Origin: Paraspadella gotoi
Taxonomy: Eukaryota > Animalia > Chaetognatha
Direction of reading: 5' to 3'
NCBI GenBank assembly: GCA_051294375.1
Contig: JBJCIZ010000322.1
Span: 1 to 29,849, forward strand
Length of the DNA: 29,849 nt
A program made the translations under genes and the position numbers. The notes beneath the pieces were generated by a model, which did no database searches, had not been told where the DNA came from, and was given only the letters and a program-made list of their open reading frames with translations. Shown piece after piece: positions 1,887 through 29,033 of the stretch (the first letter of the stretch is position 1; every line of letters begins with the position of its first letter).

Positions 1887-2243
1887 TGTAGTACATAATG
1901 TATGTACAGTATGTAGTCATGACAACTTTACACGGCATAAGCGTGACGTCGAAGCGTGACGGAATTTTGGTAAACTCAAGTGGCAAAGGCTCCAAAGCCC
2001 TTAACGCTAACAGGTGAGTGGTGAGACGTCCATCCTAGCTGGGCAATGGGCAACATTAGCAACCCAGTTTTTGCTATAACTTTCAATACAATATATTTTA
2101 AAGGTATCCCTTATTTTTACATATAAAAAATCATGTCTTGGACCATTTACCCATTATGCAAATGAAAACTCATAATTAGTTATTAAATCGTTCTTTATTT
2201 TGTAGTTCCTGATCCTTAGACCAAGATGAAGCAATAAGCTACA
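1887..2243 (+). mobile_element. Solo LTR (357 bp) with decayed twister-like core at 1940-2008
   Basis: TGTAG...CTACA termini; near-TSD ACTA/ACTG. Core: AGCGT..GA CGG aattttgg TAA..AAGG CT CCA AAGC CCTT a ACGCT. Confidence 0.6.
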
Positions 2244-3685: not shown

Positions 3686-3728
3686 TAGCTGATGAAGACT
3701 CGAACCAGCAGAGTCGAAACATGTACTA
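3686..3728 (+). ncRNA. Minimal type I hammerhead ribozyme (Penelope/retrozyme-type)
   Basis: TAG CTGATGA A GACTC-gaaccagca-GAGTC GAA ACATGT A CTA. Intact core, palindromic stem III, 3-bp stem I, followed by AATAAA. Confidence 0.8.
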
Positions 3729-3809
3729 CTAACAATAAAAATCGTTGTATTGGCAAATCAATAAACATTTCCTAATATTCTATCTGATAAAAAACTATAT
3801 TGATAAAAT

Positions 3810-4028
3810 GATGGTGCACTAAAATCCATCAACCGTTCATCAGCGGCCATTGGTGCCGGAGTCAAGTCATTTGCCTCCCAACCCAAAGGTCCGGGGTTCT
3901 AGCCTAGCAATTAAGAGGGACGGGGCGCTTAACCTGCCTGTAACATGGTGTTACAGACTGATCCGAAGCTCAGGGACTGCTTATATTGAACGGTTCGGTC
4001 ACCAACAACAATAATTTCTGTCTCTTCA
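3810..4028 (+). mobile_element. Family A solo-LTR-like element (tRNA-like head + twister), copy 1
   Basis: Homologous to 5907-6140 and 17813-18046. TSD AAAT (3806-3809 / 4029-4032). Ends CTCTTCA; short deletion at the 3' end of the tRNA-like part. Confidence 0.85.
3906..3981 (+). ncRNA. Twister ribozyme, type-P5 (family A)
   Basis: Same core; P2 is CCT/AGG (fully paired); single mismatches in P4 and P5. Confidence 0.7.
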
Positions 4029-4106: not shown

Positions 4107-4384
4107 TATAGTTGGGCATTGCGGCTAGATCACCCTGCCTATAAGCATGACATCTTTGATTTTAACCCGGAAGCTTATTGAGTAAACTGAGCTCGATTAT
4201 TAGATATTACCCTTTGTGAAGTGTGAGGACGGCTTAGGGGTGTGGAAAACCCCTAAAACCGGTTTCCGAGTTCAGGGTCTGTTCCATTGCTGGTCATGGG
4301 ACAAAGGAGTTAGAACATATACACAATCTCATGTTTGATATATGTATGGTTTGGTTTAACTTTATGACTGTATAATACACTACA
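4107..4384 (+). mobile_element. Family C-related LTR-like remnant
   Basis: Shares GAAGYGTGAGGACGG, TTAGGGG..GGAAAACCCCTAA and GTTCCATTGCTG with 16880-16970. TATAG...CTACA ends, but no clean TSD. Confidence 0.5.
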
Positions 4385-5906: not shown

Positions 5907-6140
5907 TGAAGAGACAGTAATTATTGTTATATGTTAGTGACAGAACCGTTCAATATAAGCAGTCCCTGAGCTTCGGATCAGGCTGTAACACCAAGTTACA
6001 GGCGGGTTAAGCGCCCCGTCCCTCTTAACTGCTAGGCGACCACCGAGCTCGAACCCCGGACCTTTGGGTTGGGAGGCGAATGACTTTCCTCCGGCACCAC
6101 TGGCCGCTGATGAACGGTTGGTGGATTTTAGTCCATCATA
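5907..6140 (-). mobile_element. Family A solo-LTR-like element, copy 2 (234 bp)
   Basis: TSD ATTA (5903-5906 / 6141-6144). Termini TAT...TCA on the - strand. tRNA-like 6036-6107, twister 5958-6033. Confidence 0.9.
5958..6033 (-). ncRNA. Twister ribozyme, type-P5 permutation (family A, best copy)
   Basis: - strand: AGCAGTT(P5) aag AGG(P2') GA CGG GGCGCT(P1) TAA CCC GCC TGTAAC-ttggt-GTTACA(P3) G CCTG AT CCG AAGC T CAGG(P4/L4) GACTGCT(P5'). L4 CCG is complementary to the CGG after GA. Confidence 0.8.
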
Positions 6141-6443
6141 ATTATAGCTTTACAAATGGAAGTATATTTCTTATTTCGGCTCATGTTTGATAGAAGATTG
6201 TTATTGTCAAAGGTCGGGCTATTAGTATTAGCTCGGATTTCAGGGTCGGTATTAACCACTATGGCCCTATTATAAAATAAATATTTTTATCATTATATTA
6301 TTATTATTAAAAAAAATTATATACAATTATGAAAAAAATTTTTCAAGCAAATCGGAATCAATTAGAACATTAAAAAAGTTAAAAGTGCCCGACTACAAAA
6401 GATTCTTAACATGAACATGGTGTCTTTAATTCTTAGCACTTAA

Positions 6444-6985
6444 ACAATTTTAATCAGAATATCACTTAGACAGTCTGTTTTATAAATCATAACAACAAAA
6501 TAAATTACAAACCTTTTATAGAAAACGTTGCACTCAAAAAAGTGCTTATCACTGAAACAATTTAAATCAAAATGTCTAGTTAAAATCAGAATGAAGTAAA
6601 AATAATTTTTTCCATTGTCAGTCACACAGACCTATTATGGATAATGTTGCAAAAAGGTGATTGTCACATAGACAATTTTAATCAGAATGTCACTTAGACA
6701 GTCTGTTTTATAAATCATAATGACAAAATAAATTAATTTCATAAGGTCACCTTTTACAGAAAACGTTGCACTCAAAAAGGTGCTTGTCACTGAGACAATT
6801 CAAATCAAAATGTCACTTAGACATGTCTTGTTAAAATCAGAATGAAGTAAAAACAATTTTTTCCATTGTCAGTCACACAGACCTATTATGGATAATGTTG
6901 CAAAAGGTGATTGTCACATAGACAATTTTAAATCAGAATGTCACTTAGACATTTTTAGTTAAAATTAGAATAAAGTGAAAACAAG
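6444..6985. repeat. Tandem repeat, about 230-250 bp unit (2.2 copies) built from TGTCACTTAGACA subrepeats
   Basis: ACAATTTTAATCAGAAT restarts at about 6444, 6672 and 6922. Confidence 0.9.
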
Positions 6986-7633: not shown

Positions 7634-10600
7634 TTAAAACTGATTTAATACAATGAGGTTTCCTTTTTTGATATGTTGAAGCAGCATTTCGTGCTTAATT
7701 TCGCCATTAATTTCGGTTTTAAAACAAATAGACTTTTTAATCGGTTTGACAATATCATGTACTATTCCTTGAAGCCACTCACCGTTGACCTTTATTTCAA
7801 ATTGACAATTTATCAATTTTTCAGGCTCTTGAAAAAACATACTGTAAAGCTTTTGAGTATGTTTTACAGATTGCTTCTGTACAGCATTTGACCTCTTTTG
7901 TTGCAATGCAGTGATAACAACTTCAGCCGCATCAGTAACATCAATAACAGCAGGAGGCGTCTCTTCACAAAAATCCAGTCGCTTCAAATGTGGATTTTCT
8001 TGATAAATTTTCTCCAAGTGAACCAGTTTTTCAGCCAAAGAGTATTCTTTTTTGTTCAAGGTTTTGTTAAAAACATTTTTGTTCAAACAAGTAGCATCAC
8101 CAATTTTATGCAAAAATTCTATTAATAAATTTAACGCATGTAGTTTTTCTTTGTCATCATCTATCAAATCAAGCTTGGCTTGCACTTCATGTTGCAACCA
8201 TGGTGGACCATAAGTTTCAGTAAACTTTCTTACTATTTCCAACTTTTTTCTTCCTTTAGAATTTTCATTTTCGATTTTAGTGTCTATAATTTTTTGGCGT
8301 TTCTTCAACAAATCTGCTTTATAATTTTTATCAATAGTTATTTCTTCTGATTTACGTTTTTGATAAGATTTTCGAGCAGATTTAATTATTTCTTCTCTTT
8401 CAGAATCATTTTTGCTATCTATGTATTCTACAGGACGGTTAGTCCTTAACATACAATGTGCTTGCAAAGTAGTTGATTTTGCATTTGGTTTAGCATCTTT
8501 AATAAACCGCGCTAGTCCAAAAAGTGATTCCCCACGTTGGTTTGTTGTTGGAACGCTAAGCGTTCCATTTACAAAATTTGGATCATCTTGAAGCTCATCC
8601 AGCCTTCCACCATTTAGGAAATCGGCTGCTTGGGTTGTCAAAGTAAGAAGCATTGCTTCGGCAATAACTTGAACTACTTCAATTATTTGTGTCCTGTTTA
8701 AATCATTTGTTGCAATTGCTTCCATAACCTTATTGACTTTGTCTTTTTCCAGAAATGCTTCAGAGAAAGGCGATTTTCCTTCTAACATTTGGCTTCCATC
8801 ATGACTAACATCCAGTAAAAAATTCTGAAGACTCTGCAAATGAGGAATTAATTCAAGGATGTGAACCTTAGTTTTTCCATATTCATTGTAGTGATCCTTT
8901 CCATACAAAATCCTCCAGAAAGGAGCAATAACGAGTACATCAAAAACGCTCATCGCTCCTACTTGATTTAGAGCGAATTGGTCATTCATGTCGTAGTTAA
9001 TAGAACGATATATTTGTGATGTATCTTCATGTTCAAAAAATTCTTTAAGATGTGCCAGTAAAATAAGTATTCTGGTTGCTGCTGGAAATTCTATTCCAGC
9101 TCTGTTATGCTCATAATGCACAACATTTGGATCTGCAATTTTTTTGCTTTGTCGAAAAGCCTTCCATAGCTCCACAAGCCGCCAAGTTTGTTCCTTCTGG
9201 TGTGGATGCAACACTAATGAAATATTTCGATTCAATCGCTGAACTGCGGGTGATTCTCCCGTGTAAGCATAAGGGTTCCTCTCTTGAGGAACTGAAAGAG
9301 ATTCTAATTGTTTTAATGCATTTATTGTCGAGGTAGACATATTCGATAATAAATGCATTTTACAATAAAATGTATTTACTTTTTCCAAATTACTACGTTG
9401 GGCGGGAGTAAAGTCATTATTAGCCAGGATCATAGGCAACAATGTTTTTTTAAAATCTTCAAGTTGATTCGCAAATGCGCCATTCACAGGTGCCTGATCA
9501 GTCATTACGTTACTGATTTTTGTTATTAATTCTGCAAGTTTGCTTAACTCATCTTCATCAGGTTTTAATCCTTCTCGAGCAATCTCAGAAAACTTTTCAT
9601 GAACATAGCCCAATAATGACTTGGCATCTTCTTGACATATGGCTCGTAATCCTAGCGTATAGGTAGATCCATCAGCGAAATGAATTTGAGAACCAAGAAA
9701 ACTAATTGATTTATGGGTCGCAGAATCTATCGATAATGTTACATCTTTTTCTGACTCTAACTTTTCAGAAAGCTGTTTCATTAATAAGCAATGACTCTCT
9801 GTCACAAGTCTAGAAACAAAACTTCTAGATGGACATCTTTTCAAATCTGTCCCAGATAATCGCTGCAATACAGTTTTCATTGCCTGAGGTATTTGTCTGG
9901 CTGGTATTCCGAGCTGTAACAGGTCCCAGGCACAAACACGGAGCTCGTCACTGTACATACCATTTTCAAACAAATTAATTTCATTATTTTTTAAAGCCTC
10001 ATTCATTTGTTCCAAAATTCCTATTTCTTTTGATTTTTCTTGGTATTTTTTACGCATTTGTTCCATAACACCTTTTTTATACTCATCCTCTTGTATCTTT
10101 CTTTCCATAAACAGTTTGCTTTTGTACCGAATACGTGCGAGTTGTAATTGTGAAACGCGATTTTTATTTTTTTCTTCTTTCAACTGCGTTGAAAGATCAA
10201 GAATTCTTCGGTCTTTTTTCTCAATTAGCTTCTGTCGTTCTGAAGCGATTTTCATGGCGCGTTTCAAATCTGCTTTGACTTTAGCAAGTCGTATCAAATT
10301 TTTCATTTTCATCAATTTTTTACTTTTCTTCAACCTTTTGATTTTGCTGTTAGAATTATAATTTTTGTTTTCATCCCCACAAATATCACGAGAAGATACA
10401 TTAACATTCTGGATTTCCAAATCCAAAGCTGAAACAATTCCTGGATTTGACGCATTTTCTTCCGCATCAGTCGCAAAAAACGATAAAACGGGTTCATGAT
10501 CTGTCGTTAGGGGGGAATTGCTAACATTTTCAAAACTTGATACATTGATTTCTTGTATATCTAAATCTGATGAAGGAACAACATTTGGGACGGGCTCATC

Positions 10601-11589
10601 ATCTTCAACTTCAGTGGAAAAAATTGAAATATGCTGTAAATTTGGGACAGATTCATTGTCTGCTAAAAAGTTTTCATTTCTCTCAGAATGAGATTCAGGA
10701 GATCCAATATCTAAAAAAAAATTATTTTAAAAAAGATTTGATTCTTTTATTCCAAATTAATAAATTTTATAAAATAGTTTAAAACTATATAATACAGTCA
10801 TGAGCAAAAATCAAGCCACTTTATATCAGCACTTAAAAATCTCCCTGAATATTTGAATTTTAAAAGTAAATTAATATTTAAAAAAATTTTATGGAATCTC
10901 CAGTTTTTAAAGTTATACAGTGGCTTTTTTTTTTTCACTTGAGCGCAAATATATTTTTCTTAACATAAAATTGTTATGGCTATAACAATTGAACTGAAAT
11001 ATAATTTACTAGTATCAGCATTTAAGCTAACAAAATAATAATTTGAGTCAAACAACGCCGGATCTGCACCCGGTAAGCAGCGAATCAGATGATAATTTAT
11101 GATTAATCTTACAATTTTTTTATTTATTACAACGGACGGACAGACACCGATTTTTTTGCATAATTTATTTTAATTCAATGATCCGACAAAATTGTGGGGT
11201 GGGACCGACAAAGTGAATTGTAGAGCTGGAATCTGCTGTAAGTAGATGCGGCTAAAGACCATTTATGCTTTTAATTACCTAATGCGATAATTTATATAAA
11301 CAATGCTTAATTTTATCTATATTACTCATGAAAAATATATGTTTACTATCCAAAACTAACCTCTAAAATCTTCTTCTGAAAAAAACGGTGCCGATGAATA
11401 AGCTTCTGTCCCTTCAGCTCTTCTTCTTAATTTGCTACGAAATTTCCAACGAAGTTTTCTTAGTTTTGATCCAAAGCTCTTCTTGGATATACAAATGGTT
11501 GGATAGCGAGCTTTAACTAATTGCCAACACATATTTTCGCTGAGCCCGTCCGTGAGTTTTAACATTTCTAAATTTGTAATTAGTTCCAT
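7634..11589 (-). CDS. DDE DNA transposase, hAT-related (CxxH) group; two exons 11589..11361 and 10710..7634, about 1101 aa
   Basis: The 930-aa ORF has candidate catalytic residues D (VTLSID), D (NVMTDQAPVN), CxxH (FYCKMHLL) and E (PTTNQRGESLFG), plus an N-terminal coiled coil. The frame stays open upstream to an acceptor ttttttttAG at 10711-10720. The 77-aa ORF at 11356-11589 ends at a donor AG|GTTAG (exon end 11361). Both junctions are phase 1 (G+AT=Asp), total 3306 nt. Confidence 0.85.
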
Positions 11590-11903
11590 TTTTAAAAAAT
11601 GTTAGAGATGTCAACAAATAAAGCTGAAAAAAAAACACAAAATATTTCATTGATGTAAATCATTCAATTGAAAAATATAATAATAAATTTGGATTTAAAT
11701 AATTTCATGAAAAACCATTATGATAGAAAGCCATATCATTTCATACAATTTTACATAATTATTCATATTTAAATATGTGTATATCCTTTCTTTTTCGTTG
11801 TGTTTGTAGATTATAAGACAGTTTAATTATTTGCAACAATTTATTTTCAAAAGATGAACATGTTTCGGCTCAGGATTCGAGCCTTCATCAGCGCTGATGA
11901 AGG

Positions 11904-12163
11904 TGTGGCGGTATATTCACACCGCCTCACGTCCACCATCCTTCAGCCAAATCCATTGGCTCAGATGGGGAACACACCATCCCAGGCGTAGTGTTCCATC
12001 CACAAGCCAGTCCTAATGACTTCTCTCTGCGTTGGCAAAGCGAGACCGTCCTAGGGTAACCGCGCCAGTGACAGGATGCGTCAATGAGGGTCGGAAGCCC
12101 CCAAAGCCAACAGTGAGATGACCCATCCCAATGGACATCACAGGCAACCCGGCTGTTGCCATA
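11904..12163 (+). mobile_element. Family B solo-LTR-like element (260 bp) with tRNA-like boxes and twister, inserted into a hammerhead
   Basis: TSD AAGG (11900-11903 / 12164-12167). Termini TGTGGC...GCCATA. A-box-like TGGCTCAGATGG and degenerate B-box GTGTTCCATCC. Confidence 0.85.
12031..12111 (+). ncRNA. Twister ribozyme, type-P5 (family B)
   Basis: GTTGGC(P5) aaa GCGA GA CCG TCCTAGGG(P1) TAA CCGC GCC agTGAC..GTCAat(P3) G AGG GT CGG AAGC CCCC aaa GCCAAC(P5'). L4 CGG pairs with CCG. Confidence 0.78.
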
Positions 12164-12638
12164 AAGGCTTGAATCCTGAGCCAAAACATGTTCGTCTTTT
12201 AAAAATAAATTGTCGCCCATACAGAAACCAGCGCGAAACTTTCATAACGACGCCGATCTGATGACGCTGAATAAGTGAATATCCTCGCCAAAGTCTCATA
12301 TCCGAAGGCGTCAACGCGCGTGGTGAAGCCGATTCGCGATGTCAATGTCAGCACTTTATAATGTTTATTCGCTACACATGTAGGACAGAACGACCGACAA
12401 ACCAAAAAGAAGTTTCAATGTAATCCAATTTTTCGTTTCTAGGAAATATTTAACCACCCTAAAAACAACAAAAGTTTGATAATCACATACAATCATAACG
12501 CTACATTGTAGAAGCATTATTCTTTATGAAAAAAATTAATTAAGTATTCTATATATGAGCAGTGAGACAACATGGTAAAAATCAAGAAAAATGTTATCCC
12601 AAGTTTGATCGAAAAAATTCGAAAAAAAAGGATGAATA

Positions 12639-14169: not shown

Positions 14170-14622
14170 TGTTTATAATAACGCTCAAAATTACTACTCT
14201 GCATGATAATGACGGATGAGAGTAATCCCAATGGACAAAATAAATATGCTGTAGTGACTTAATATCACTACCCATTAGATACGACCGTTCCTTGAACAGC
14301 GCCATTTTAACCATAATAGCGCACTGGGCTAACGCTCCATCTCCGAACTCAACGAGTCTTGGGGTCTAGCCTGGTCGGAACGGTCGTTGCAAAAGAGTGA
14401 CGGGCTGGTTAAAACCACCTGTTACAAGCCTACCGCCAGATCCAAAGTTTTGGAAAGCAAGTCGAACTGACGGTAAAATCTCCCAGAACTACTGGGCACA
14501 CTAAGTGTGGGGGCTATTCACAACCTCAGAGGCACGGCGACCCTTTCTTCTCTCGGTCATTTCAATACAAATTTTATATTTGGGAAAATATTTTTCCTTA
14601 CAAAAATACTATGAAAGTAACA
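14170..14622 (+). mobile_element. LTR-like element with degenerate tRNA-like module and decayed twister (14387-14460)
   Basis: TGTT...AACA ends; TTATGT repeated at both boundaries, so the TSD is ambiguous. TAGCGCACTGG / GGGTCTAGCC boxes. Core: TTGC..GA CGG GCTGGT TAA..G CCAG AT CCA AAGT TTTGG aaa GCAA. Confidence 0.6.
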
Positions 14623-16875: not shown

Positions 16876-16956
16876 ACGCGCGAAGCGTGAGGACGGCCGT
16901 AAATCTCCTTAGGGGCCTGGAAAACCCCCAAGCCTGGTTCCAAGCCCAGGACACGT
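16876..16956 (+). ncRNA. Twister-like motif (family C), partly decayed
   Basis: GA GGA CGGCCG(palindromic P1) TAA atctcc, GGGG/CCCC P3, G CCTG GT TCC AAGC C CAGG. L4 TCC pairs with GGA; P2 and the GCC linker are damaged. Confidence 0.65.
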
Positions 16957-17244: not shown

Positions 17245-17310
17245 GATGAAGACTCAAAATTACTAGAGTCGAAACATGTCCGTTACTGATATCAAATAAA
17301 TTGTTGTAAA
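17245..17310 (+). ncRNA. Truncated hammerhead remnant
   Basis: GATGA A GACTC-aaaattacta-GAGTC GAAACATGTC..AATAAA; the leading CT of the core is absent. Confidence 0.6.
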
Positions 17311-17845
17311 ATTTAATAAAAATTTTCGTTTTTTGCTAAATAATTTTTATCTAAAAATTAATTTTTACTGGTGGTAAGTTGTTCATAATTGACCTTTAGA
17401 ATTTTCATAACTACGCTCTCATAATACTCATTCAATCTTAAGCATTTGCGTGCTAGAATTTCATTTTCACTCACCAAAATACTAGTTTCATCACCCCGAA
17501 AATTCCGCGTGAGCTGGAAAAAAAAATTACGTTTAGAGTTCATATTTTATCACGAGTCGAAAGTATTTGTTGAATATAATAAAACAAACATCACAAAATT
17601 AATCTTGCTACCATATAATTGTGGCGACGAATGTTTCGTCACCACGGGGTCAACCCCAGTTGGCCACTATGTTTAGCCATTGCGAGAGAAGCAGGTTACT
17701 GACTCTCTCTACTTGATCAGTGCCTCGCTCTTTCTGTTTAGTCTCATCTCAAAATCATGTACTTTGAACGTCTCTCTGTTCCTGTTATTTAACATGCTAA
17801 TAAAACATGTATTATGGTGGACTAAAATCCACCAACCGTTCATCA

Positions 17846-17917
17846 GCGGCCATTGGTGTCGGAGGCAAGTCATTCACCTCCCAACCCAAAGGTCCGGGGT
17901 TCTAGCCCGGTGGTCGC
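17846..17917 (+). ncRNA. tRNA-derived (Gly-CCC-like) Pol III promoter module, not a functional tRNA
   Basis: 72 nt with acceptor stem GCGGCCA/TGGTCGC, A-box-like TGGTGTCGGAGG, loop CTCCCAA and B-box GGTTCTAGCC. The anticodon stem is poorly paired. Confidence 0.7.
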
Positions 17918-17919
17918 CT

Positions 17920-17995
17920 GGCAGTTAAGAGGGACGGGGCGCTTAACCCGCCTGTAACTCGGTGTTACAGCCTGATCCGAAGCTCAGGGACCGCT
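17920..17995 (+). ncRNA. Twister ribozyme, type-P5 (family A); predicted cleavage between 17944 and 17945
   Basis: Same core as 5958-6033, with one A-C mismatch in P5. Confidence 0.75.
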
Positions 17996-18334
17996 TATAT
18001 TGAACGGTTCTGTCATTAACATATATCAATAATCACTGTCTCTTCAGTATTATGTGCCTCTAAATATCATTTAATTTTTTTAAGTAACTGCTCAGTTTGA
18101 TTTTTATTAATGTAGTATGTATGATTGTATAAAAGATTGCTGATTGTTTTAAAGTTTTCCTAAAAAAAGTGTTTGCTTACATAACAAATTCATTTTCTTC
18201 CTGGCCGCCTTTTCCTCCGTCCTCACTTCTCCGTCCTTTCGGTTGACTTTTGGTCCACTCACTTTTCTTGACAAATTTTTTTTGGCCGCTGTTATAAAGA
18301 AAAATAAAAATATACGGGTAAATTATATTGAGTA

Positions 18335-18717: not shown

Positions 18718-19557
18718 AAATGCAAATGTGCGAAGATTTTTTTAATCTGAAAATTTTTTTTGTAGTAAAACCCAAATTATTTAATATTTATATATCCAAA
18801 TTTTATATTGATTGGTTATGATTTGACTTGGCAATGAGCGGAGAAAAGTTGCCTTAAAAATCGTCTTTCATTTTAAAACTCAAACTTTTTTTTTCAATCT
18901 TTTTGTTTTAACTTTTGAATATTTTTTAAAGAACTTTTAGATAAAAAGTTATCATTGTTAATTCTTTTGAAAGCTTTTGGAAATTTGAAGAGAATAGATA
19001 TATATAACATAAAAATCAAGCCTAACCAGCTTTAATTTAATCAAGGTAATCAAAATTAAAATCCTATAAATAAATTATTTCAAAACAAATAACCTATTGA
19101 AACTATAATGATTTAACCAACTATTGTTTATATAAGTATCATAAAAATATTTAAAAAAAAATAAAATGGCTAATATAATTTAATAATTATTCAAACATGC
19201 TCTTTAGCAATCTTTAATTTTATCTTTAATTTTATCTTAATTTTGATTACCTTTGATTTAAATCTGTATTGACTAATTTTTATATTACAATATTTTTAAT
19301 TATGCCAATCTCTGCATATTTTTAAGAGCTTTCAGAAGATATTAATATTGATACTTTTTATCTAAAAAGTATTTTTAAAAATGTTCAGAAAGTTAGAAAA
19401 AAGATTGAAAAAAAAGATTAGTTTTAAAATGAAAGACAATTTTTAAGATATTTTCTTTGCTCATAGCCAAGTCAAAGCATAAGCAATCAATATGAAATTT
19501 GGATATATAAATGGTTTAGTCTTTACTTCAGATTAAAAAATATTGCACGTTTGCAAA
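18718..19557. repeat. Foldback-like long inverted repeat (about 330-bp diverged arms, AT-rich spacer)
   Basis: For example TTTGACTTGGCAATGAGC (about 18822) vs GCTCATAGCCAAGTCAAA (about 19459), and TTTTAGATAAAAAGT vs ACTTTTTATCTAAAA. Confidence 0.8.
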
Positions 19558-19734
19558 TGACGATTTTTTTTTAGCGGCGGGCTGTCGTGTGTCACCTTGT
19601 AAGTACCTTTTAAATTCGTTTTGAAAAATGTTCGTGATGATACAATCGCCTGTCCCATTTCTTTGCATTCCTGGATGTTTGGGGATTTGGAGCCATATTG
19701 GGAGGAAGAGAATAAAGATTTGGAGGAAATAATT

Positions 19735-20080
19735 GGGAAGGGGGAGGTAGATGAGGAGGAGGGAGATGAAAAGTGGGAGGGAGATGAGGAGGGAGATTAG
19801 GAGGAGGGAGATGAGAAGGGGGAGGGAGATGAGAAGGGGGAGGGAGATGAGAAGGGGGAGGGAGATGAGAAGAGGGAGGAGGATGAGAAGGGGGGGGGAT
19901 GAGAAGGGGGGGTGGAGGTGGAGGATGAGAAGGGGGAGGGGGATGAGAAGGGGGAGGAGGGAGGGGAAGAGGGAGGGGGATGAGAGAGAGAGGAGAGGGA
20001 GAGAGGGGAGGGAGATGAGAAGGGGGAGGGAGATGAGAAGGGGAGGTTGATGAGAAGGGGAGGGAGATAAGAAGGGGGTG
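19735..20080. repeat. Polypurine 18-bp minisatellite (ATGAGAAGGGGGAGGGAG)
   Basis: Direct tandem copies; translates as PPPSHL repeats on the - strand. Confidence 0.9.
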
Positions 20081-20946
20081 GTGGAAAAGATCGAGGAGTA
20101 ATGACAGGAATTGGAGAGCCAAAGGCGGGAGGCGGCGGGATTATGATTTGGGGCGGCGAAGTAAGGCCGGGAGGGGGAGGCAAGTCCGTCTCCATCGTTT
20201 CGTTTCTGTAAAATTATTTATGTTTGAGATAAGTAATGCGTGAAAAATATCAAATATATTAAATGCCGGATCTTCATTACCACTGACGATTCCATGAAAA
20301 TCTCAAATCAATCAACTGATCTGCTAATGAGTAATAGACGTTGAAAGCTGAAGGGGCTAGTTTTTTTTTGATAAATTTTATGTTCTGAGATGATTTAAGT
20401 GGCGGTTGACCGACGGACCGACGAAGTGAATCATAACCCTGTGTCTATGTTAAAGATACTTAATAATATCTTATTATTTGTTAGGAATATTGGATCAGAA
20501 TAAATCTTGGTTTGAAAACAATTTTTACCGTTTCATTTAATAAAAATAATTAGATCGTCTATAATTACAATAAAATCATATTTGAAAAAACCGACAGTTG
20601 CTATTTGCCATTTCATCAATGATTATTAGCGTTTTATTAAATTATTATCAGATTGGTTTGAATTTTTAATATTCGAATATAATTCAAAATAATTTAACCT
20701 GGATGCCGCATCCTCCACTTCCTGGGCCCAATCGGAAACGGTTGGGACCCAGCCATCCCCGAAAGATTCAGCTTTAGAAAATAAAGGTATTATTTGTTAA
20801 ATATAATGCACAAAAATGATAATGTTGTAAGAAAATAAAAATGGAAAAAAACAACAAAGTGATGTAATCAATTCGAAGTATAAAAATATAACTTACAATT
20901 TGAACTACTGGTGTAACTCATGTCTGAAAAAGTTTGAAAATAGGAC

Positions 20947-21069
20947 GTTTTTCTACAACGACTTTATTTGTAATAAAACGTACATGTTTCGGCTTGCATA
21001 CAAGAAGAAGGCTTGTATGCAAACCGAAACATGTACGTTTTAATACAAATAAAGTCATTGTAGAAAAAC
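20947..21069. mobile_element. Inverted repeat of 5'-truncated hammerhead/pLTR fragments
   Basis: About 58-bp arms around AAGAAGG. The right arm reads (aa)GAAGA AGGCTTG-tatg-CAAACC GAAACATGTA..AATAAA. Confidence 0.7.
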
Positions 21070-21869
21070 ATTAAAAACGTCTTCCAAGACTTTTGAATGA
21101 TAAAGAAATTAAAAATAATAACAGTATAGTGATCTAAAAAAATCTTAAAATCACAATGATTCATTGCTCAATATTTATAAAAAAAAAAGATAGTAAAATC
21201 TGACGAGATAAAAATAATGGCAATGTGCTCTTTACTAAAACCTGCTGCACTATATTGTTCCCTTAGCCCCCCCAGCAAGCCTACCTTTGTGCCCGTCTCG
21301 CCACTGAGAAAACGAGTCCCGTAACGTCGTCCTTGAGCGGATGACTTCGGTAAACAGATTCCTCTCCGGAGACGAGATTCAGTGGGTCCGGAGAAGAGCG
21401 GGAGTTTCGCAGTGCGGCGTCGTTGTGGTCGGAGGCGGCGACTTGACTAAGAGACATTCGTCGTTAGAGCAAATTCTAAATTTAAACGGACAGTCAATAA
21501 ATACTACTACTAATTAATAAAAGTAATAATCACAATTAAAAACAAACAATCACGAAATCAAATACGTAAGAAATACGGGAGACGATGGAGACGTATAAAC
21601 AATTATGATTCCAAAGAACCAAGAAGCAAAAAGAAATAAAACTAAAACAAAATGAGGTACAAATCATAAGTAAGGCATATATTAAAAGTAAACGTAAAAG
21701 TAAGAAAACCAAATATAAAAAGTCAAATACGAATCCATCAATCGCAGATGAACGGAGGCAGACGATCCCGAAAGTACCATGATGGAAAAAAAATTGTCAA
21801 ATATATTTTTTAGCCAATAAATAAATTTAATAATCACTTTTAAATCAATTGTAACCATTTGTAAGGAGT

Positions 21870-21916
21870 TTTATTAAAAAATATATTTCGGTTTAAATGT
21901 AAGCTTTCATCAGTAT
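21870..21916 (-). ncRNA. Degenerate hammerhead remnant (re-copied near 26036-26052 and 27640-27683)
   Basis: - strand: CTGATGA A agctta-catt-taaacc GAA ATATAT..AATAAA; stem II is mismatched. Confidence 0.45.
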
Positions 21917-22771
21917 AAAAATAAATTATTTAATAAAACAATTATTTTTACAAATTTTAAAAGAAAAAAATTGTAAAAGTATTTATTTTATAAATGCATT
22001 TGTTTTTGCGCTGATAAAAATTAGTATTTTTAAATAAAACTAATTGTATATAAACAAACAATTTATTTTTTATCTCAAAATAAAAATAATAATTAATATT
22101 AATTAAAAATTATTATTTTTAAATATAAAATTATAAAATTTATATTACTACGCAAAAAAATGTATATTATTATACAAACTGAAATAACGCTAAAACTAAT
22201 AAAAAGAAAATAAAATTAAATAGATTAAGAACCTACCGACTGGTAGTACGCTTAGTTACGGTCGTTAAATAAAAATTAAATTAAAATTACATAATTATTT
22301 AATATATAAAAATATTTTTAAAAAAAGTTACCTTCAACTGTTTTTACTTTTTTTGATCAAAAGGATTACTTACATTATTATTAATATTATATTTTAATCA
22401 GATTTTTTTGACAGTTTTAATAATACATCCAAAAATAAATAAATAATAATTTTATTTACAAAAAATTTACCTGAAGGTTTATAAATTTTATTGATACTTA
22501 ATAATTAAAAAAGATTCTGAAGCAACTACAAAATTAATATAATTTTAATACTATTTTTTTAAATATGAATTTAAATTCATCCTTAAATTTATCTTAATAA
22601 AAATGATACAATAACCATTTGACATAAAACTGAGAAAAAGCAAAGATTTTTAATAATAATAGTTTAATTCAAAAAATAATAAAAAATAATTAGAAATTAA
22701 TATAAATAAAAATTATAAATATTAAAAAAATAAAAACATTTTTAAAATAACTATTTTTTTTTGCATAGAAC

Positions 22772-25700
22772 NNNNNNNNNNNNNNNNNNNNNNNNNNNNN
22801 NNNNNNNNNNNNNNNNNNNNNNNNNNNNNNNNNNNNNNNNNNNNNNNNNNNNNNNNNNNNNNNNNNNNNNNATATAACTTAAATAAGTGATTTAATGATA
22901 ATTTAAAACCAATTGGGGGTTAATTTTACTTCCTCCGAACGCGGTAAACCCAAATTTGGTTACAATTGGATGACNNNNNNNNNNGTGGCACCCCTTTGAT
23001 TAGCTCTTTAGTCAGTGGAGGATGGTATTTTTAGTAGAAAATAATTCCAATCTTCACTAGTCCTTACCTTCTTACTATTTTGATCATTACTTGTCTTTTT
23101 TAAAAAAANNNNNNNNNNNNNNNNNNNNNNNNNNNNNNNNNNNNNNNNNNNNNNNNNNNNNNNNNNNNNNNNNNNNNNNNNNNNNNNNNNNNNNNNNNNN
23201 NNNNNNNNNNNNNNNNNNNNNNNNNNNNNNNNNNNNNNNNNNNNNNNNNNNNNNNNNNNNNNNNNNNNNNNNNNNNNNNNNNNNNNNNNNNNNNNNNNNN
23301 NNNNNNNNNNNNNNNNNNNNNNNNNNNNNNNNNNNNNNNNNNNNNNNNNNNNNNNNNNNNNNNNNNNNNNNNNNNNNNNNNNNNNNNNNNNNNNNNNNNN
23401 NNNNNNNNNNNNNNNNNNNNNNNNNNNNNNGGCGCCTGAGGACTCGGGAGCTTCTGCGCCAAAGAGGAGGCGCCATGAAGGTTCTGATGAAGCAAAAGCG
23501 CCGAAGAGGCGCCGCAAATGCCCGAAGGCGTTTCCCTTCTCCTTTCTCCGGCCGGATTACNNNNNNNNNNNNNNNNNNNNNNNNNNNNNNNNNNNNNNNN
23601 NNNNNNNNNNNNNNNNNNNNNNNNNNNNNNNNNNNNNNNNNNNNNNNNNNNNNNNNNNNNNNNNNNNNNNNNNNNNNNNNNNNNNNNNNNNNNNNNNNNN
23701 NNNNNNNNNNNNNNNNNNNNNNNNNNNNNNNNNNNNNNNNNNNNNNNNNNNNNNNNNNNNNNNNNNNNNNNNNNNNNNNNNNNNNNNNNNNNNNNNNNNN
23801 NNNNNNNNNNNNNNNNNNNNNNNNNNNNNNNNNNNNNNNNNNNNNNNNNNNNNNNNNNNNNNNNNNNNNNNNNNNNNNNNNNNNNNNNNNNNNNNNNNNN
23901 NNNNNNNNNNNNNNNNNNNNNNNNNNNNNNNNNNNNNNNNNNNNNNNNNNNNNNNNNNNNNNNNNNNNNNNNNNNNNNNNNNNNNNNNNNNNNNNNNNNN
24001 NNNNNNNNNNNNNNNNNNNNNNNNNNNNNNNNNNNNNNNNNNNNNNNNNNNNNNNNNNNNNNNNNNNNNNNNNNNNNNNNNNNNNNNNNNNNNNNNNNNN
24101 NNNNNNNNNNNNNNNNNNNNNNNNNNNNNNNNNNNNNNNNNNNNNNNNNNNNNNNNNNNNNNNNNNNNNNNNNNNNNNNNNNNNNNNNNNNNNNNNNNNN
24201 NNNNNNNNNNNNNNNNNNNNNNNNNNNNNNNNNNNNNNNNNNNNNNNNNNNNNNNNNNNNNNNNNNNNNNNNNNNNNNNNNNNNNNNNNNNNNNNNNNNN
24301 NNNNNNNNNNNNNNNNNNNNNNNNNNNNNNNNNNNNNNNNNNNNNNNNNNNNNNNNNNNNNNNNNNNNNNNNNNNNNNNNNNNNNNNNNNNNNNNNNNNN
24401 NNNNNNNNNNNNNNNNNNNNNNNNNNNNNNNNNNNNNNNTCTTGGACCATTTACCCATTATGCAAATGAAAACTCATAAATAGTTATTAAATCGTTCTTC
24501 ATTTGGTAGTTCCTGATCCTTAGACCAAGATGAAGCAATANNNNNNNNNNNNNNNNNNNNNNNNNNNNNNNNNNNNNNNNNNNNNNNNNNNNNNNNNNNN
24601 NNNNNNNNNNNNNNNNNNNNNNNNNNNNNNNNNNNNNNNNNNNNNNNNNNNNNNNNNNNNNNNNNNNNNNNNNNNNNNNNNNNNNNNNNNNNNNNNNNNN
24701 NNNNNNNNNNNNNNNNNNNNNNNNNNNNNNNNNNNNNNNNNNNNNNNNNNNNNNNNNCCGGGGTTAGGGTTAAGGGTGGTTTAGGGTTAGGGGTAGTGAG
24801 AATTAAATGGGTTTAGGGTAATTAGGGATTATTTTTTGGCGAAAGTAAAATTTAGCCTCTTAATCTATAATTACAATTGCTGGATGGCAGTAAATAAAAA
24901 TTTTNNNNNNNNNNNNNNNNNNNNNNNNNNNNNNNNNNNNNNNNNNNNNNNNNNNNNNNNNNNNNNNNNNNNNNNNNNNNNNNNNNNNNNNNNNNNNNNN
25001 NNNNNNNNNNNNNNNNNNNNNNNNNNNNNNNNNNNNNNNNNNNNNNNNNNNNNNNNNNNNNNNNNNNNNNNNNNNNNNNNNNNNNNNNNNNNNNNNNNNN
25101 NNNNATATCGAATTTCGATGACAATCACAAGAAATATCATAAGAGAAAACGAGTCCCGTCACGTNNNNNNNNNNCGGATGACTTCGGTAAACAGATTCCC
25201 TCTCTCCGGAGACGAGATTCAGCGCGATTGGTGGGTCCGGAGAAGAGCGGGAGTTTAACCTTTCGCAGTGCGGCGTCNNNNNNNNNNGAGGCGGCGACTT
25301 GACTGAGAGACACTCGTCGTTAGAGCAAATTCTAAATTTAAACGGACNNNNNNNNNNTACTACTACTAATTAATAAAAGTAATAATCACAATGAAACACA
25401 AACAATTAATCACGAANNNNNNNNNNCAAGAAATACGGGAGATGGAGACGTATAAACAATTATGATTCCAAAGATCGTGTAAAATGTAATCAAAGAACCA
25501 AGAAGAAATAAAACTAAAACAAAATGAGGCACAAATCATAAGGCATTGAAGAGACAGTAATTATTGATAAGTGTTAATGACANNNNNNNNNNNNNNNNNN
25601 NNNNNNNNNNNNNNNNNNNNNNNNNNNNNNNNNNNNNNNNNNNNNNNNNNNNNNNNNNNNNNNNNNNNNNNNNNNNNNNNNNNNNNNNNNNNNNNNNNNN

Positions 25701-28630
25701 NNNNNNNNNNNNNNNNNNNNNNNNNNNNNNNNGGCACCAATGGCCGCTGATGAACGGATGGTGGATTTTAGTTTAGTCCACCATAGCATATATTAAAAGT
25801 AAACGTAAAAGTAAGAAAACCAAATNNNNNNNNNNNNNNNNNNNNNNNNNNNNNNNNNNNNNNNNNNNNNNNNNNNNNNNNNNNNNNNNNNNNNNNNNNN
25901 NNNNNNNNNNNNNNNNNNNNNNNNNNNNNNNNNNNNNNNNNNNNNNNNNNNNNNNNNNNNNNNNNNNNNNNNNNNNNNNNNNNNNNNNNNNNNNNNNNNN
26001 NNNNNNNNNNNNNNNNNNNNNNNNNNNNNNNNNNNGTAAGCTTTCATCAGTATAAAAATAAATTATTTAATAAAAAAATTATTTTCACAAATTTTAAGAG
26101 AAAAAATTTTTAAAAATATTTATTTCATAAATGCATTTGTTTTTACGCTGATAAAAACTTATATTAAAACCGAAATTGATATTTTCTAATAAAACTTATA
26201 GTATATAAACAAACAATTTATTTTTATCTAAAAATAAAAATAATAATTAATATTAATTTAAAACTATTATNNNNNNNNNNNNNNNNNNNNNNNNNNNNNN
26301 NNNNNNNNNNNNNNNNNNNNNNNNNNNNNNNNNNNNNNNNNNNNNNNNNNNNNNNNNNNNNNNNNNNNNNNNNNNNNNNNNNNNNNNNNNNNNNNNNNNN
26401 NNNNNNNNNNNNNNNNNNNNNNNNNNNNNNNNNNNNNNNNNNNNNNNNNNNNNNNNNNNNNNAGTTACCTTCAACTGTTTTTACTTTTTTTGATCAAAAG
26501 GACTAGTTACATTATTATTAATATTATATTTTAATCAGATTTTTTTNNNNNNNNNNNNNNNNNNNNNNNNNNNNNNNNNNNNNNNNNNNNNNNNNNNNNN
26601 NNNNNNNNNNNNNNNNNNNNNNNNNNNNNNNNNNNNNNNNNNNNNNNNNNNNNNNNNNNNNNNNNNNNNNNNNNNNNNNNNNNNNNNNNNNNNNNNNNNN
26701 NNNNNNNNNNNNNNNNNNNNNNNNNNNNNNNNNNNNNNNNNNNNNNNNNNNNNNNNNNNNNNNNNNNNNNNNNNNNNNNNNNNNNNNNNNNNNNNNNNNN
26801 NNNNNNNNNNNNNNNNNNNNNNNNNNNNNNNNNNNNNNNNNNNNNNNNNNNNNNNNNNNNNNNNNTATTTTTTTTGCATAGAACTCTTATATTTTTTGTT
26901 GGATAAAAATAAAATACAGCTTATATGAATTATAAAAAAACAAATTTTTTTATATTTAAATTTTATTTTTCGATTCTTACATTAACAGAGAAGAGATTGT
27001 GTAGAGTGATCTAGGATCTGTTGCGAGGGATCAATGAGGAGTGCAATTGCGCGATGATGTTTCGGGATATGGCACCAGTTATATTTCATGCATCTCTTTT
27101 TATATTTACTCACACTTATTCCACTATGTTTTTTAATATCCACACTTATGATATAGACATTGCCAGATGTTCCTAGGACTTTAGTGAGGTCAGGGTTCAA
27201 GCGCCTCGCGTGTGCTCGCTCTGTACTGCCCAGATATTTGGTAATCGAGCCGACCCCGGCCCTTGGAAACACCGACTTTTTAGCTTCTAAGTTTCCTCTT
27301 CCTCCGGGCTCTTATGCATACCCTAGGCCACCTCTTTCTTTGAGGCTTTGGACAGACGAATGAACTTTTCCTCCGGCGACCAATGGCCGCTGATGAACGG
27401 ATGGTGGGAGTTTAGTTTATCCGCATCCTAGCATATTATGTCAAAAGTAATACGTAAAAGTAAAGAACAACCCAAATTATAAAAAGTCAATACGAAATCA
27501 TCAATCGCAGATGAACGGAGGCAGACGATCCTGAAAGTACCATGAACTGGAAAAAATGTACAAAATACTTATTTTTTAGCCAATAAATAAATTTAATAAT
27601 CACGGTTTTAAATCATTTGTTACCATTTGTAATGAGTTTTATTAAAAATATATTGTCGGTTTAAATGTAAGCTTTCATCAGTATAAAAATAAATTATTTA
27701 ATAAAAAAAAATTATATTTTTTATTTTCACAAATTTAAAAGAAAAATGTTTTAAAAAATATTTATTTCCATAAATGCATTTGTTTTTTACTGCTGAATAA
27801 AACTTTATAATTAAAACCGAAATTGATATTATCTAATAAACTTATAGTATAATAACAAACAACCACTATCATTTTTATCTAAAAATAAAAATAATAATTA
27901 ATATTAATTTAAAACTATTATTTTTAAAATACTAAAATTTTAGTTACTACATTCAAAATAAATATATATATTATAACAAACTGAAATACATTGCTAAAAC
28001 TAGTAAAAGAAAACGAAAATTAAATAGATTAAGAAACTAGCCGACCGGTAAGTACGCTTAGTTACGGTTCGTTGAATATGTTTATAAATTAACCCAATCT
28101 AAATTTAATATATACGTATCCATATTTTACCCAGAAAAAAGTTAACCTTCAACTGTTTGTTTACTCATTTTTTGATCAAAAGGAACTAGTTTACATTATT
28201 TATGGTAATATTATATTTTAATCATGATTTTTTTTGACAGTCATCATCTCTAATCTAGTCCAAAAATAAATAAATAATAATTTTATCTGTACAAAAAATT
28301 TACGCTGAAGGTTTATAACTTTTATTGATACTTAATAATTAAAAAAGAATTCTGAAGCATCACTACAATATTAATATAATTTTTAATAAGCATTTTTTAC
28401 ATATGAATTTAAATTCCACCTTGGAAATTTATCTTAATGAAAAATGATGACATATAACCATTTGACATAGAAAACTGAGAAAAAGCAAAGATTTTTTAAT
28501 AATAATAGTTCTAACACTCAAAATATAAATAAAAAATAATTAGAAATTGATGATAAATAGAAAAGTATAAATATAAAAAAAATAAAAAACATTTTTATAA
28601 AATAAACTATCTTTTTTTTGCATAGACTCT
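22772..28630 (+). other. Gapped/noisy duplicate of earlier sequence (haplotype, segmental duplication or assembly artefact)
   Basis: 22872-25144 matches 566-2904 at an offset of about 22.3 kb. 25143-26884 matches 21307-22771. 27360-28630 is an indel-rich third copy of about 21675-22771. Confidence 0.85.
25547..25785 (-). mobile_element. Family A solo-LTR-like element, copy 4 (interior masked by N)
   Basis: Both termini visible. TSD GCAT (25543-25546 / 25786-25789). The paralogous site at about 21672-21690 (aaggcatatattaaaag) is empty. Confidence 0.85.
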
Positions 28631-28762
28631 ATATTTTTTGCTTGGAGTAAAAATAAATACAGCCTTATATGAACTTATAAAAAAACAAAATTTTTTTTAT
28701 ATTTAAATTTTATTTTTCGGATTCTTACATTAAAAATCTAAAAATATCTGGAAAGTAACCAT

Positions 28763-29033
28763 TGTGACACGACTTGTAATTCCTACCGAGAGTCCGTCCT
28801 CACCCTTGTCTCAATGGCTGAGCAGGTCTAAATCAATCTTCATTCCATCGTGCGTTCCCGGGTTTCAATCCCTGGTATTCCCCGGTCTCTGGCTTAAATG
28901 TGACGGTGCCCTGGTATAGAAAGCATGCCAGTGACAGGAGGCGGTCACCTGAGGGTCCGCAGCCCCTACGCCAGTTGGTGAGATACCCCACCGCGCGCCC
29001 GGTATCACAGCATACTCCTCCCGTGCCTATACA
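28763..29033 (+). mobile_element. Family B-related solo-LTR-like element (271 bp) with tRNA-like boxes and twister at 28889-28974
   Basis: TGT...ACA termini; TSD CCAT (28759-28762 / 29034-29037). A-box TGGCTGAGCAGG, B-box GGTTTCAATCC. Core: CTGGC ttaa ATGT GA CGG tgccctggta TAGaaa GCAT GCC GTGAC/GTCAC stem G AGG GT CCG CAGC CCCT ac GCCAG. Confidence 0.8.

Follow-up and report, generated by a model that had tools for sequence, protein, structure and literature searches.

Permuted twister-like motifs behind tRNA-like heads in solo-LTR-like elements of Paraspadella gotoi

Introduction

What would a self-cleaving RNA fold be doing in short, dispersed repeats of an animal genome? The question is raised by a contig of the chaetognath Paraspadella gotoi (GenBank assembly GCA_051294375.1, contig JBJCIZ010000322.1), from which the stretch analyzed here, hereafter the window, spans 29,849 nucleotides. 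The window is AT-rich (33% GC) eukaryotic DNA that is dense in repeats, with many N gaps beyond 22.7 kb. A sequence-only reading had proposed that twister pseudoknots co-vary between several of these repeats. Our explanation, to which we assign a probability of about 0.6, is that a permuted twister-like motif lies behind a tRNA-like head in solo LTRs of the Helenus type.

Results

The motifs follow a twister template opened at P5

Seven motif copies have the same order of parts, namely P5, P2 strand, GA, triplet, short linker, NAA, P2 strand, NC, P3, P4, U-triplet-NA-GY, P4, and P5. This is the order of the twister template (PMC8501958, Table 1; PMC5408937) when it is opened at P5. The catalytic GA, the cleavage-site AA (N^AA), and the U and A of L4 are present in 7/7 aligned copies; in the 28889 motif, N is A instead of U. 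The likeness to type-P5 twisters further includes P2, P3, P4, P5, both pseudoknots, the (U)AA of L1, and termini that lie in P5. The type-P5 class reportedly comes from Roth et al. 2014. Judged by these parts, the motifs are very probably permuted (type-P5) twister-like RNAs, and they are likely to self-cleave. Hairpin, pistol, and HDV folds were rejected by inspection. The coordinates of the motifs and of the elements that hold them are collected in Table 1.

Table 1. Twister-like motifs, tRNA-like head, and host elements in the window. T1 pairs L4 with the bases after GA; T2 pairs the NC of L2 with L4.
Feature	Position	Strand	Details
Family C solo-LTR-like element	11904..12163	+	260 bp; TG...TA ends; TSD AAGG (4 bp)
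Family C type-P5 twister-like motif	12031..12111	+	P5 GTTGGC/GCCAAC (12031-36/12106-11); GA 12044-45; T1 CGG/CCG (12046-48 with 12092-94); palindromic P1 linker 12049-56; predicted cut 12057^12058; P2 3/4 pairs; T2 12064-65 with 12097-98; P3 present; P4 12088-90/12099-101
Family C relative, decayed, headless	1929..2078	+	150 bp; TA...TA ends; TSD ACTT
Family A solo-LTR-like element	17813..18046	+	234 bp; TA...CA ends; TSD GTAT
Family A tRNA-like head	17846..17917	+	7-bp acceptor-like stem; T-arm; box A-box B spacing 44 nt; degenerate
Family A twister-like motif	17920..17996	+	T1 CCG/CGG; P2 3 bp with bulge or mismatch; A-U closes P4; predicted cut 17944^17945
Family A copy	5907..6140	-	234 bp; TSD ATTA; twister-like motif 6033-5958; predicted cut 6009^6008
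Family A copy	3810..4028	+	219 bp (15-nt deletion); TSD AAAT; twister-like motif 3906-3981
Family A copy, interior N-gapped	25547..25785	-	TSD GCAT
271-bp element	28763..29033	+	TG...CA ends; TSD CCAT; holds motif 28889-28974; gap-rich assembly zone
Twister-like motif in 271-bp element	28889-28974	+	P5 CTGGC/GCCAG; P2 4/4; P1/L1 long, irregular
Family D twister-like copy	14387..14460	+	P5 TTGC/GCAA; T2 AC/GT (double change); T1 2/3 pairs
Family B twister-like copy	16876..16956	+	T1 TCC/GGA intact; T2 1/2 pairs; weak P5; no tRNA-like head
Deleted relative of the 16876 motif (4225 copy)	4215..4285	+	Cleavage-site segment missing

The motifs also differ from known type-P5 twisters. Their T1 triplets fall outside the GRG pattern of one recent search (bioRxiv 10.1101/2024.07.11.603121), and P1 is reduced to a 6-8-nt palindrome with no workable loop. 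In family A, P2 has 3 bp and an A-U pair closes P4. Rfam 15 recognizes none of the motifs. The pair that closes P4 is G-C in families B and C and A-U in A and D; in twisters, a G-C at this place has been described as essentially invariant. The Rfam twister model gave no match in the window at E up to 1, nor in four local stretches scanned at E up to 10. We take this silence as a limit of the database and not as a defining feature. Plausible causes are that the T1 triplets are odd, that a P1 hairpin is absent and, for family A, that P2 is short and an A-U pair closes P4. A pattern scan for relatives returned 0, 3, and 0 matches in viral contigs and 2 in metagenomes; all 5 were without stems and were dropped as chance.

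The missing Rfam match, the P2 and P4 departures of family A, and the visible decay of several copies (16876, 14387, 4225, and 1929) would also fit a structural relic that derives from a twister and is catalytically dead. We regard such a relic as improbable, given that 7/7 copies retain both the catalytic GA and the AA of the cleavage site and that family A contigs, surveyed below, show no variant of at least 3% at GA or TAA. In addition, a high-throughput test of natural twisters found that imperfections in P1, P2, and mostly also in P4 are tolerated, whereas pseudoknot mismatches are harmful (bioRxiv 10.1101/2024.07.11.603121). By this yardstick, family A, 12031, and 28889 look competent, and 16876 and 14387 look impaired; the 16876 copy is likely decayed.

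Pseudoknot pairing is kept by compensatory change

The triplet in L4 and the triplet after GA had been said to co-vary, and all of the triplets read as claimed: CCG/CGG in the three readable family A copies and in 28889-28974, CGG/CCG in 12031-12111, and TCC/GGA in 16876-16956. The companion statement, that P5 changes while remaining paired, holds in part. GTTGGC/GCCAAC and CTGGC/GCCAG are present. Of the three readable family A copies, 6033-5958 alone has a faultless AGCAGTT/GACTGCT, and each of the two others has one A.C mismatch. TTGC/GCAA is not found at 16876-16956; it closes the 14387-14460 copy, which the sequence-only reading had not listed. The P5 stems of different families cannot be brought into register, and thus represent separate stems rather than column-wise covariation.

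Covariation was counted on a MAFFT alignment of the seven motif copies. Taken together, T1 and T2 are paired in 33/35 cells, and 4/5 pairs differ on both sides, a result matched by 0/500 shuffles; in slid registers, 20-46% of cells are paired. For T1, 20/21 cells are paired with a double change at all 3 pairs. For T2, 13/14 cells are paired with one double change, and the broken pair belongs to the 16876 copy. It should be noted that the copies were found by structure search and that one sequence stands behind each double change, so the covariation is supportive and not of R-scape grade.

A strict descriptor matched 5 motifs (the three in family A, 12031, and 28889) from 3 lineages, and the 16876 and 14387 copies fail it. 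Its background was 177 matches in 8,637 and 151 in 8,316 shuffled windows, or ∼0.02 per window. A looser score and descriptor separated real from shuffled sequence poorly, with too high a background. Single-strand folding gave z values of -0.1 to -1.9 for six ribozyme motifs, which are not diagnostic, -2.7 for the 234-nt family A element, and -1.8 for the 260-nt family C element. The shuffle, register, and descriptor controls bear out the proposal that selection on ribozyme structure, and not a chance motif, lies behind the pattern: a twister-like structure is kept by compensatory change. The covariation is good evidence for the fold, and the pseudoknot pairing itself has already been described for twisters (PMC5408937).

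The ribozymes belong to a few homologous lineages

The sequence-only reading had treated the element families as unrelated, with flanks that do not align, and had placed the ribozymes in several independent LTR families of a diversified superfamily. Relatedness was assessed by local alignments against 300 shuffles. The ribozymes of 12031 and 28889 align with a z of 11.6, those of A and 14387 with a z of 9.4-12, and those of 16876 and 4225 with a z of 16.3. Outside of the ribozyme, the heads of A and 14387 align (z 3.4-6.5), as do the 3' parts of 12031 and 1929 (z 10.7), whereas local alignment found none between the flanks of 12031 and 28889. GA lies 120-140 nt from the 5' end in the A, 12031, and 28889 elements, which is a common layout. 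What survives of the earlier view is a diversified group in LTR-like elements and the unalignable 12031/28889 flanks. Unrelatedness and independence do not survive, since the ribozymes of 12031/28889 and of A/14387 are homologous, the A/14387 heads align, and one layout is used. By these alignments, the ribozymes form about three homologous lineages with one layout and are not independent inventions, so the double changes arose as descendants of one ancestor diverged. Because it separates homologues, the swap of CCG for CGG counts as a genuine compensatory change.

The host elements resemble solo LTRs

A 4-bp TSD flanks 7/7 elements with assignable ends, a count that leaves out the 14387, 16876, and 4225 elements, whose ends are not assignable. 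The termini follow the pattern TR...YA; in family A, three copies start with TA and one with GA, and all end with CA. The ends of the four family A copies were set by alignment, plus loose contig ends at 17813 and 18046. The 11904 element interrupts a hammerhead-like palindrome, and its ends are thereby fixed independently of its TSD, whereas for the 28763 and 1929 elements the choice of ends was guided in part by a TSD search. For the family A copy at 25547-25785, an empty site is present in a duplicated block near 21676. No element has a poly(A) or microsatellite tail. The tRNA-like start is preceded by 30-50 nt within the elements; in family A, 33 constant bases lie upstream of the head. 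The 4-bp TSDs, the TR...YA ends, the constant sequence ahead of the tRNA-like start, and the missing tail together point to LTR ends made by an integrase.

The same features bear on a SINE origin, in which ordinary tRNA-SINEs would have captured the 5'-terminal twister of an RTE-type LINE and moved by target-primed reverse transcription. That the elements are short, numerous, and headed by a tRNA-like sequence would suit such SINEs; twisters do occur at RTE/Perere-3 5' ends (PMC8501958, PMC7761336), and hammerheads have been described in schistosome SINEs. RTE twisters, however, are type P1 and start at the cut site, while the motifs here are permuted at P5 with half of the core upstream of the cut. 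A Pol III SINE would presumably also be unable to carry the 30-50 nt ahead of its tRNA-like start. With the TSD fixed at 4 bp and no tail, the data on TSDs and ends largely refute this origin, and we consider it very unlikely. The Perere-3/RTE twister variants of Schistosoma share with the motifs here a place in a retroelement and a tolerated poor P1; they belong to type P1 and lie at the 5' terminus of a LINE that is autonomous and whose TSD adjoins the cut, whereas here the cut is internal (PMC8501958). A MITE or DNA transposon was rejected, as no terminal inverted repeats beyond ∼6 bp are present.

Animal Helenus elements (TRIMp3; Kojima 2024, PMC10886601) are described as Gypsy-dependent TRIMs with tRNA-like LTRs of up to 323 bp, 4-bp TSDs, and solo LTRs, and several LTRs in that supplement start or end with TA. 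The elements in the window share with them box A/B-like sequences, of varying quality and not in every element, in an LTR-sized unit, the 4-bp TSD, TG/TA...CA/TA ends, solo copies, and several families per genome. They differ in that a twister-like motif follows the head, in that the head lies in the 5' half without a T-run behind it, and in that only single units are found. In the published Helenus LTRs that were compared, the tRNA-like part lies mostly near the 3' end and is often followed by a T-run, as judged by eye and uncounted (PMC10886601). On our reading, the twister here occupies the place where other Helenus LTRs have their terminator. The text of PMC10886601 does not contain "twister", and six L4 strings were unmatched in its supplement, where line breaks can mask matches. 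The window contains no two-LTR element, PBS, or PPT, and we infer the "LTR" label from the solo-type anatomy. Judged by this anatomy, the elements are quite probably solo LTRs left by non-autonomous LTR retrotransposons of the Helenus type, for whose insertion a Gypsy integrase would be used.

A weaker reading than the Helenus-type one would assign them to Naiad/Penelope-like elements, either as non-autonomous partners with a tRNA head or as pseudo-LTR pieces, and would give the twister the role of the hammerhead in other PLEs. Naiads have no canonical hammerheads and can reach very high abundance (PMC8557442), remnants of PLE hammerheads are common in the window, and a few contigs contain head-to-tail family A joins. 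Against this, PLEs are described with TSDs of varying length, 5' truncation, tandem or inverted arms, and 30-40-bp tails (PMC8557442, PMC11167929), while here the TSD is 4 bp in 7/7 elements, family A has two sharp ends, and tandem joins are rare. No Naiad ORF is adjacent. Such a partnership is therefore rather improbable, and we retain the Helenus-type reading.

Several other features of the window were recorded. Palindromic or single remnants with hammerhead-like cores lie at 11821-11903 plus 12164-12228 (a pair split by the 11904 element), 20947-21069, 3688-3730, and 17245-17285, and by eye they resemble Penelope pLTR pieces. An AT-rich block occurs three times (21250-22770, 25110-26980, and 27330-28740); its later copies are N-gapped or indel-rich, which suggests haplotype or assembly redundancy, and the 28889 motif adjoins this zone. 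At 27333-27420 (minus strand), in the same block position as the 25547 copy, a noisy 5' part of a family A element gives way to unrelated sequence that is not ribozyme. A 1030-aa stop-to-stop ORF at 7634-10726 (minus strand) has no notable Pfam or PDB match. Its look-alikes in the Atlas are eukaryotic clusters without names (0.91-0.95), and the nearest named ones are hAT-like (0.77-0.78), a lead only; the ORF probably encodes a DDE transposase. As a helper of the elements it was rejected, as it is not adjacent and nothing speaks in its favor. A proline-rich frame across an 18-bp purine repeat at 19528-20217 (minus strand) could be the start of a retroelement ORF. Tandem repeats comprise a 26-28-bp minisatellite at 1341-1519 and units of ∼125/250 bp at 6437-6984.

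Box A/B-like sequences precede the motif in three lineages

Box A/B-like sequences are found in three lineages. They are good in the 28763 element, with box A at 28815 (0 mismatches) and box B at 28862 (1 mismatch) 47 nt apart, and degenerate in A and D, where the D head lies upstream of the 14387 motif. At 12031, no two boxes of the head are properly spaced, and the 16876 and 1929 elements are without a head. The box scan gave 20 matches across the window, mostly outside of the heads. ARAGORN called tRNA-Gly(CCC) on the head of the 5907-6140 copy, at a relaxed threshold that gives 11 chance calls per shuffled window. Rfam gave no tRNA match in the scanned stretches at E up to 10, a sister family A copy included, and when the head was compared with phage sequences by blastn, no tRNA matched significantly. 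Taken together, the evidence for a tRNA-like head is moderate, and the head is predicted to be a Pol III promoter. At approximate coordinates, the inverted repeats 17826-17833/17998-18005 would close the family A head and ribozyme into one domain, and 14282-14291/14377-14386 would close the family D head alone.

Family A is abundant and conserved at the catalytic bases

Family A was surveyed in contigs from four public sequencing runs, which are not independent, as the tables of X5 and X6 are near-identical and X1 is possibly the source sample. In X1, the family appears in 12,025 pieces with a summed depth of ∼2 million inside the element versus ∼50 on its unique right flank, a ratio that is not a copy number. 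Family A is clearly very abundant. Loose contig ends pile up at 17813 and 18046 and define sharp ends, and the sequences beyond them are mutually unlike (agreement 0.39-0.51). Beyond 18046, agreement is 0.39-0.45, which is expected for solos but gives no positive sign of an internal region. A possible PBS past the 3' end (one base plus TGG, the plurality in one run) was left unused, because agreement there is 0.39 and the three other runs differ. Within T1, the variants are CpG-type transitions only (3% at 17935 and 8% at 17979 in X1). These family-wide data cover family A; the P2 mismatch in 12031, the T2 break in 16876, and the irregular P1/L1 in 28889 are single-copy readings that may reflect family traits, decay, or errors of assembly.

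Palindromic P1 linkers suggest cleavage as a dimer

In 4/5 lineages (A, B, C, and D), the P1 linker is a 6-8-mer that is complementary to itself over its full length; the 28889 linker is not palindromic. The hairpin energies of the linkers are +2.7 to +5.7 kcal/mol, and a two-copy duplex would have -8.3 to -10.7 kcal/mol (A, B, and C). P1 thus forms no stable intramolecular hairpin, and a 6-8-bp intermolecular duplex is possible. For the inner pairs, which are out of reach of a hairpin, the probability of chance complementarity is ∼0.002, and the linkers of A and D show a double change at positions 2 and 5. The palindromic linkers suggest that cleavage takes place in a dimer, for which the palindromic helix III of dimeric hammerheads is a precedent (PMC4209133). 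Dimer-gated release of a unit-length or circular RNA can be proposed from these linkers, at somewhat less than even odds.

P1 is dispensable in tested twisters (PMC5408937; bioRxiv 10.1101/2024.07.11.603121), and so monomers may cleave and a dimer step may be unnecessary. A serious alternative to dimer gating is thus that monomer cleavage merely ends the transcript: the same LTRs would carry a real twister that makes the 3' end in place of a Pol III terminator, followed by ordinary tRNA-primed LTR reverse transcription with no circle. In agreement with this, no T4 run is present in the five best-preserved elements, and the motif stands at the place of the T-run in many published Helenus LTRs, judged by eye and uncounted (PMC10886601). 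However, the copy in the 5' LTR would also cut, which would remove the repeat needed for strand transfer unless cleavage were blocked, and the palindromic linkers are left unexplained. We consider this alternative unlikely, though it must be taken seriously.

Discussion

The motifs, the palindromic linkers, and the element ends can be joined in a model of an animal LTR retrozyme. Helenus-type LTRs would combine a captured tRNA Pol III promoter with a P1-gated permuted twister that cuts only when both LTRs are on one transcript, and the resulting circle would be copied to very many sites by a Gypsy reverse transcriptase and integrase. In a two-LTR parent, so far unseen, transcription by Pol III would begin in the 5' LTR, at its tRNA-like head, and, since no T-run terminator is present, would read through to the 3' LTR. 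Pairing between the palindromic P1 linkers would join the two ribozyme copies, which would then cleave at N^AA. The unit-length RNA would then circularize and be reverse transcribed and integrated with a Gypsy helper, as modeled for plant retrozymes (PMC4918200, PMC7761336). Solo LTRs would arise by LTR-LTR recombination or from short cDNAs and would mostly be dead ends. We offer this complete cycle as tentative, with the odds against it, and hold it to be less probable than dimer-gated release by itself.

Plant LTR retrozymes (Cervera et al. 2016, PMC4918200) share with this model a ribozyme in the LTR, a 4-bp TSD, solo LTRs, and a proposed Gypsy helper and circular RNA. Their ribozyme is a type III hammerhead, and a tRNA-like promoter is not among their described features, whereas the animal elements here combine a twister-like motif with a tRNA-like head. 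The dimeric minimal hammerheads of PLEs and metazoan non-LTR retrozymes (PMC4209133; bioRxiv 10.64898/2026.07.22.740005) likewise have a short palindromic helix that needs a second copy. They belong to another ribozyme class and lie in tandem or pLTR arrays, in contrast to the dispersed units with a fixed 4-bp TSD described here.

In the searchable full texts, which include few subscription papers, no twister in an LTR element was found; plant hammerhead retrozymes, LINE twisters, and PLE hammerheads were. The retroelement-ribozyme literature compared includes PMC10085705, PMC6765202, PMC13565253, and bioRxiv 10.64898/2026.07.22.740005, and the P5 twister lists of Roth 2014 and of the bioRxiv supplements, which lie outside this comparison, could hold relatives. 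In that searchable literature, ribozymes in true LTRs are plant hammerhead retrozymes only, and retroelement twisters are at LINE 5' ends only. What looks new is therefore the host element, a tRNA-bearing, Helenus-like LTR, together with the palindromic P1; the covariation is not new in itself.

An abundant, very probable twister subtype escapes Rfam. If the solo-LTR reading is true, twisters would have a second concrete genomic job, in tRNA-bearing animal LTRs. If the retrozyme model is true as well, the searchable literature would contain no earlier twister in an LTR element and no earlier one that is dimer-gated in nature. Animals would then have a retrozyme life cycle too, one that uses another ribozyme together with a Pol III promoter, and the elements would offer a natural case of dimer-controlled cleavage.
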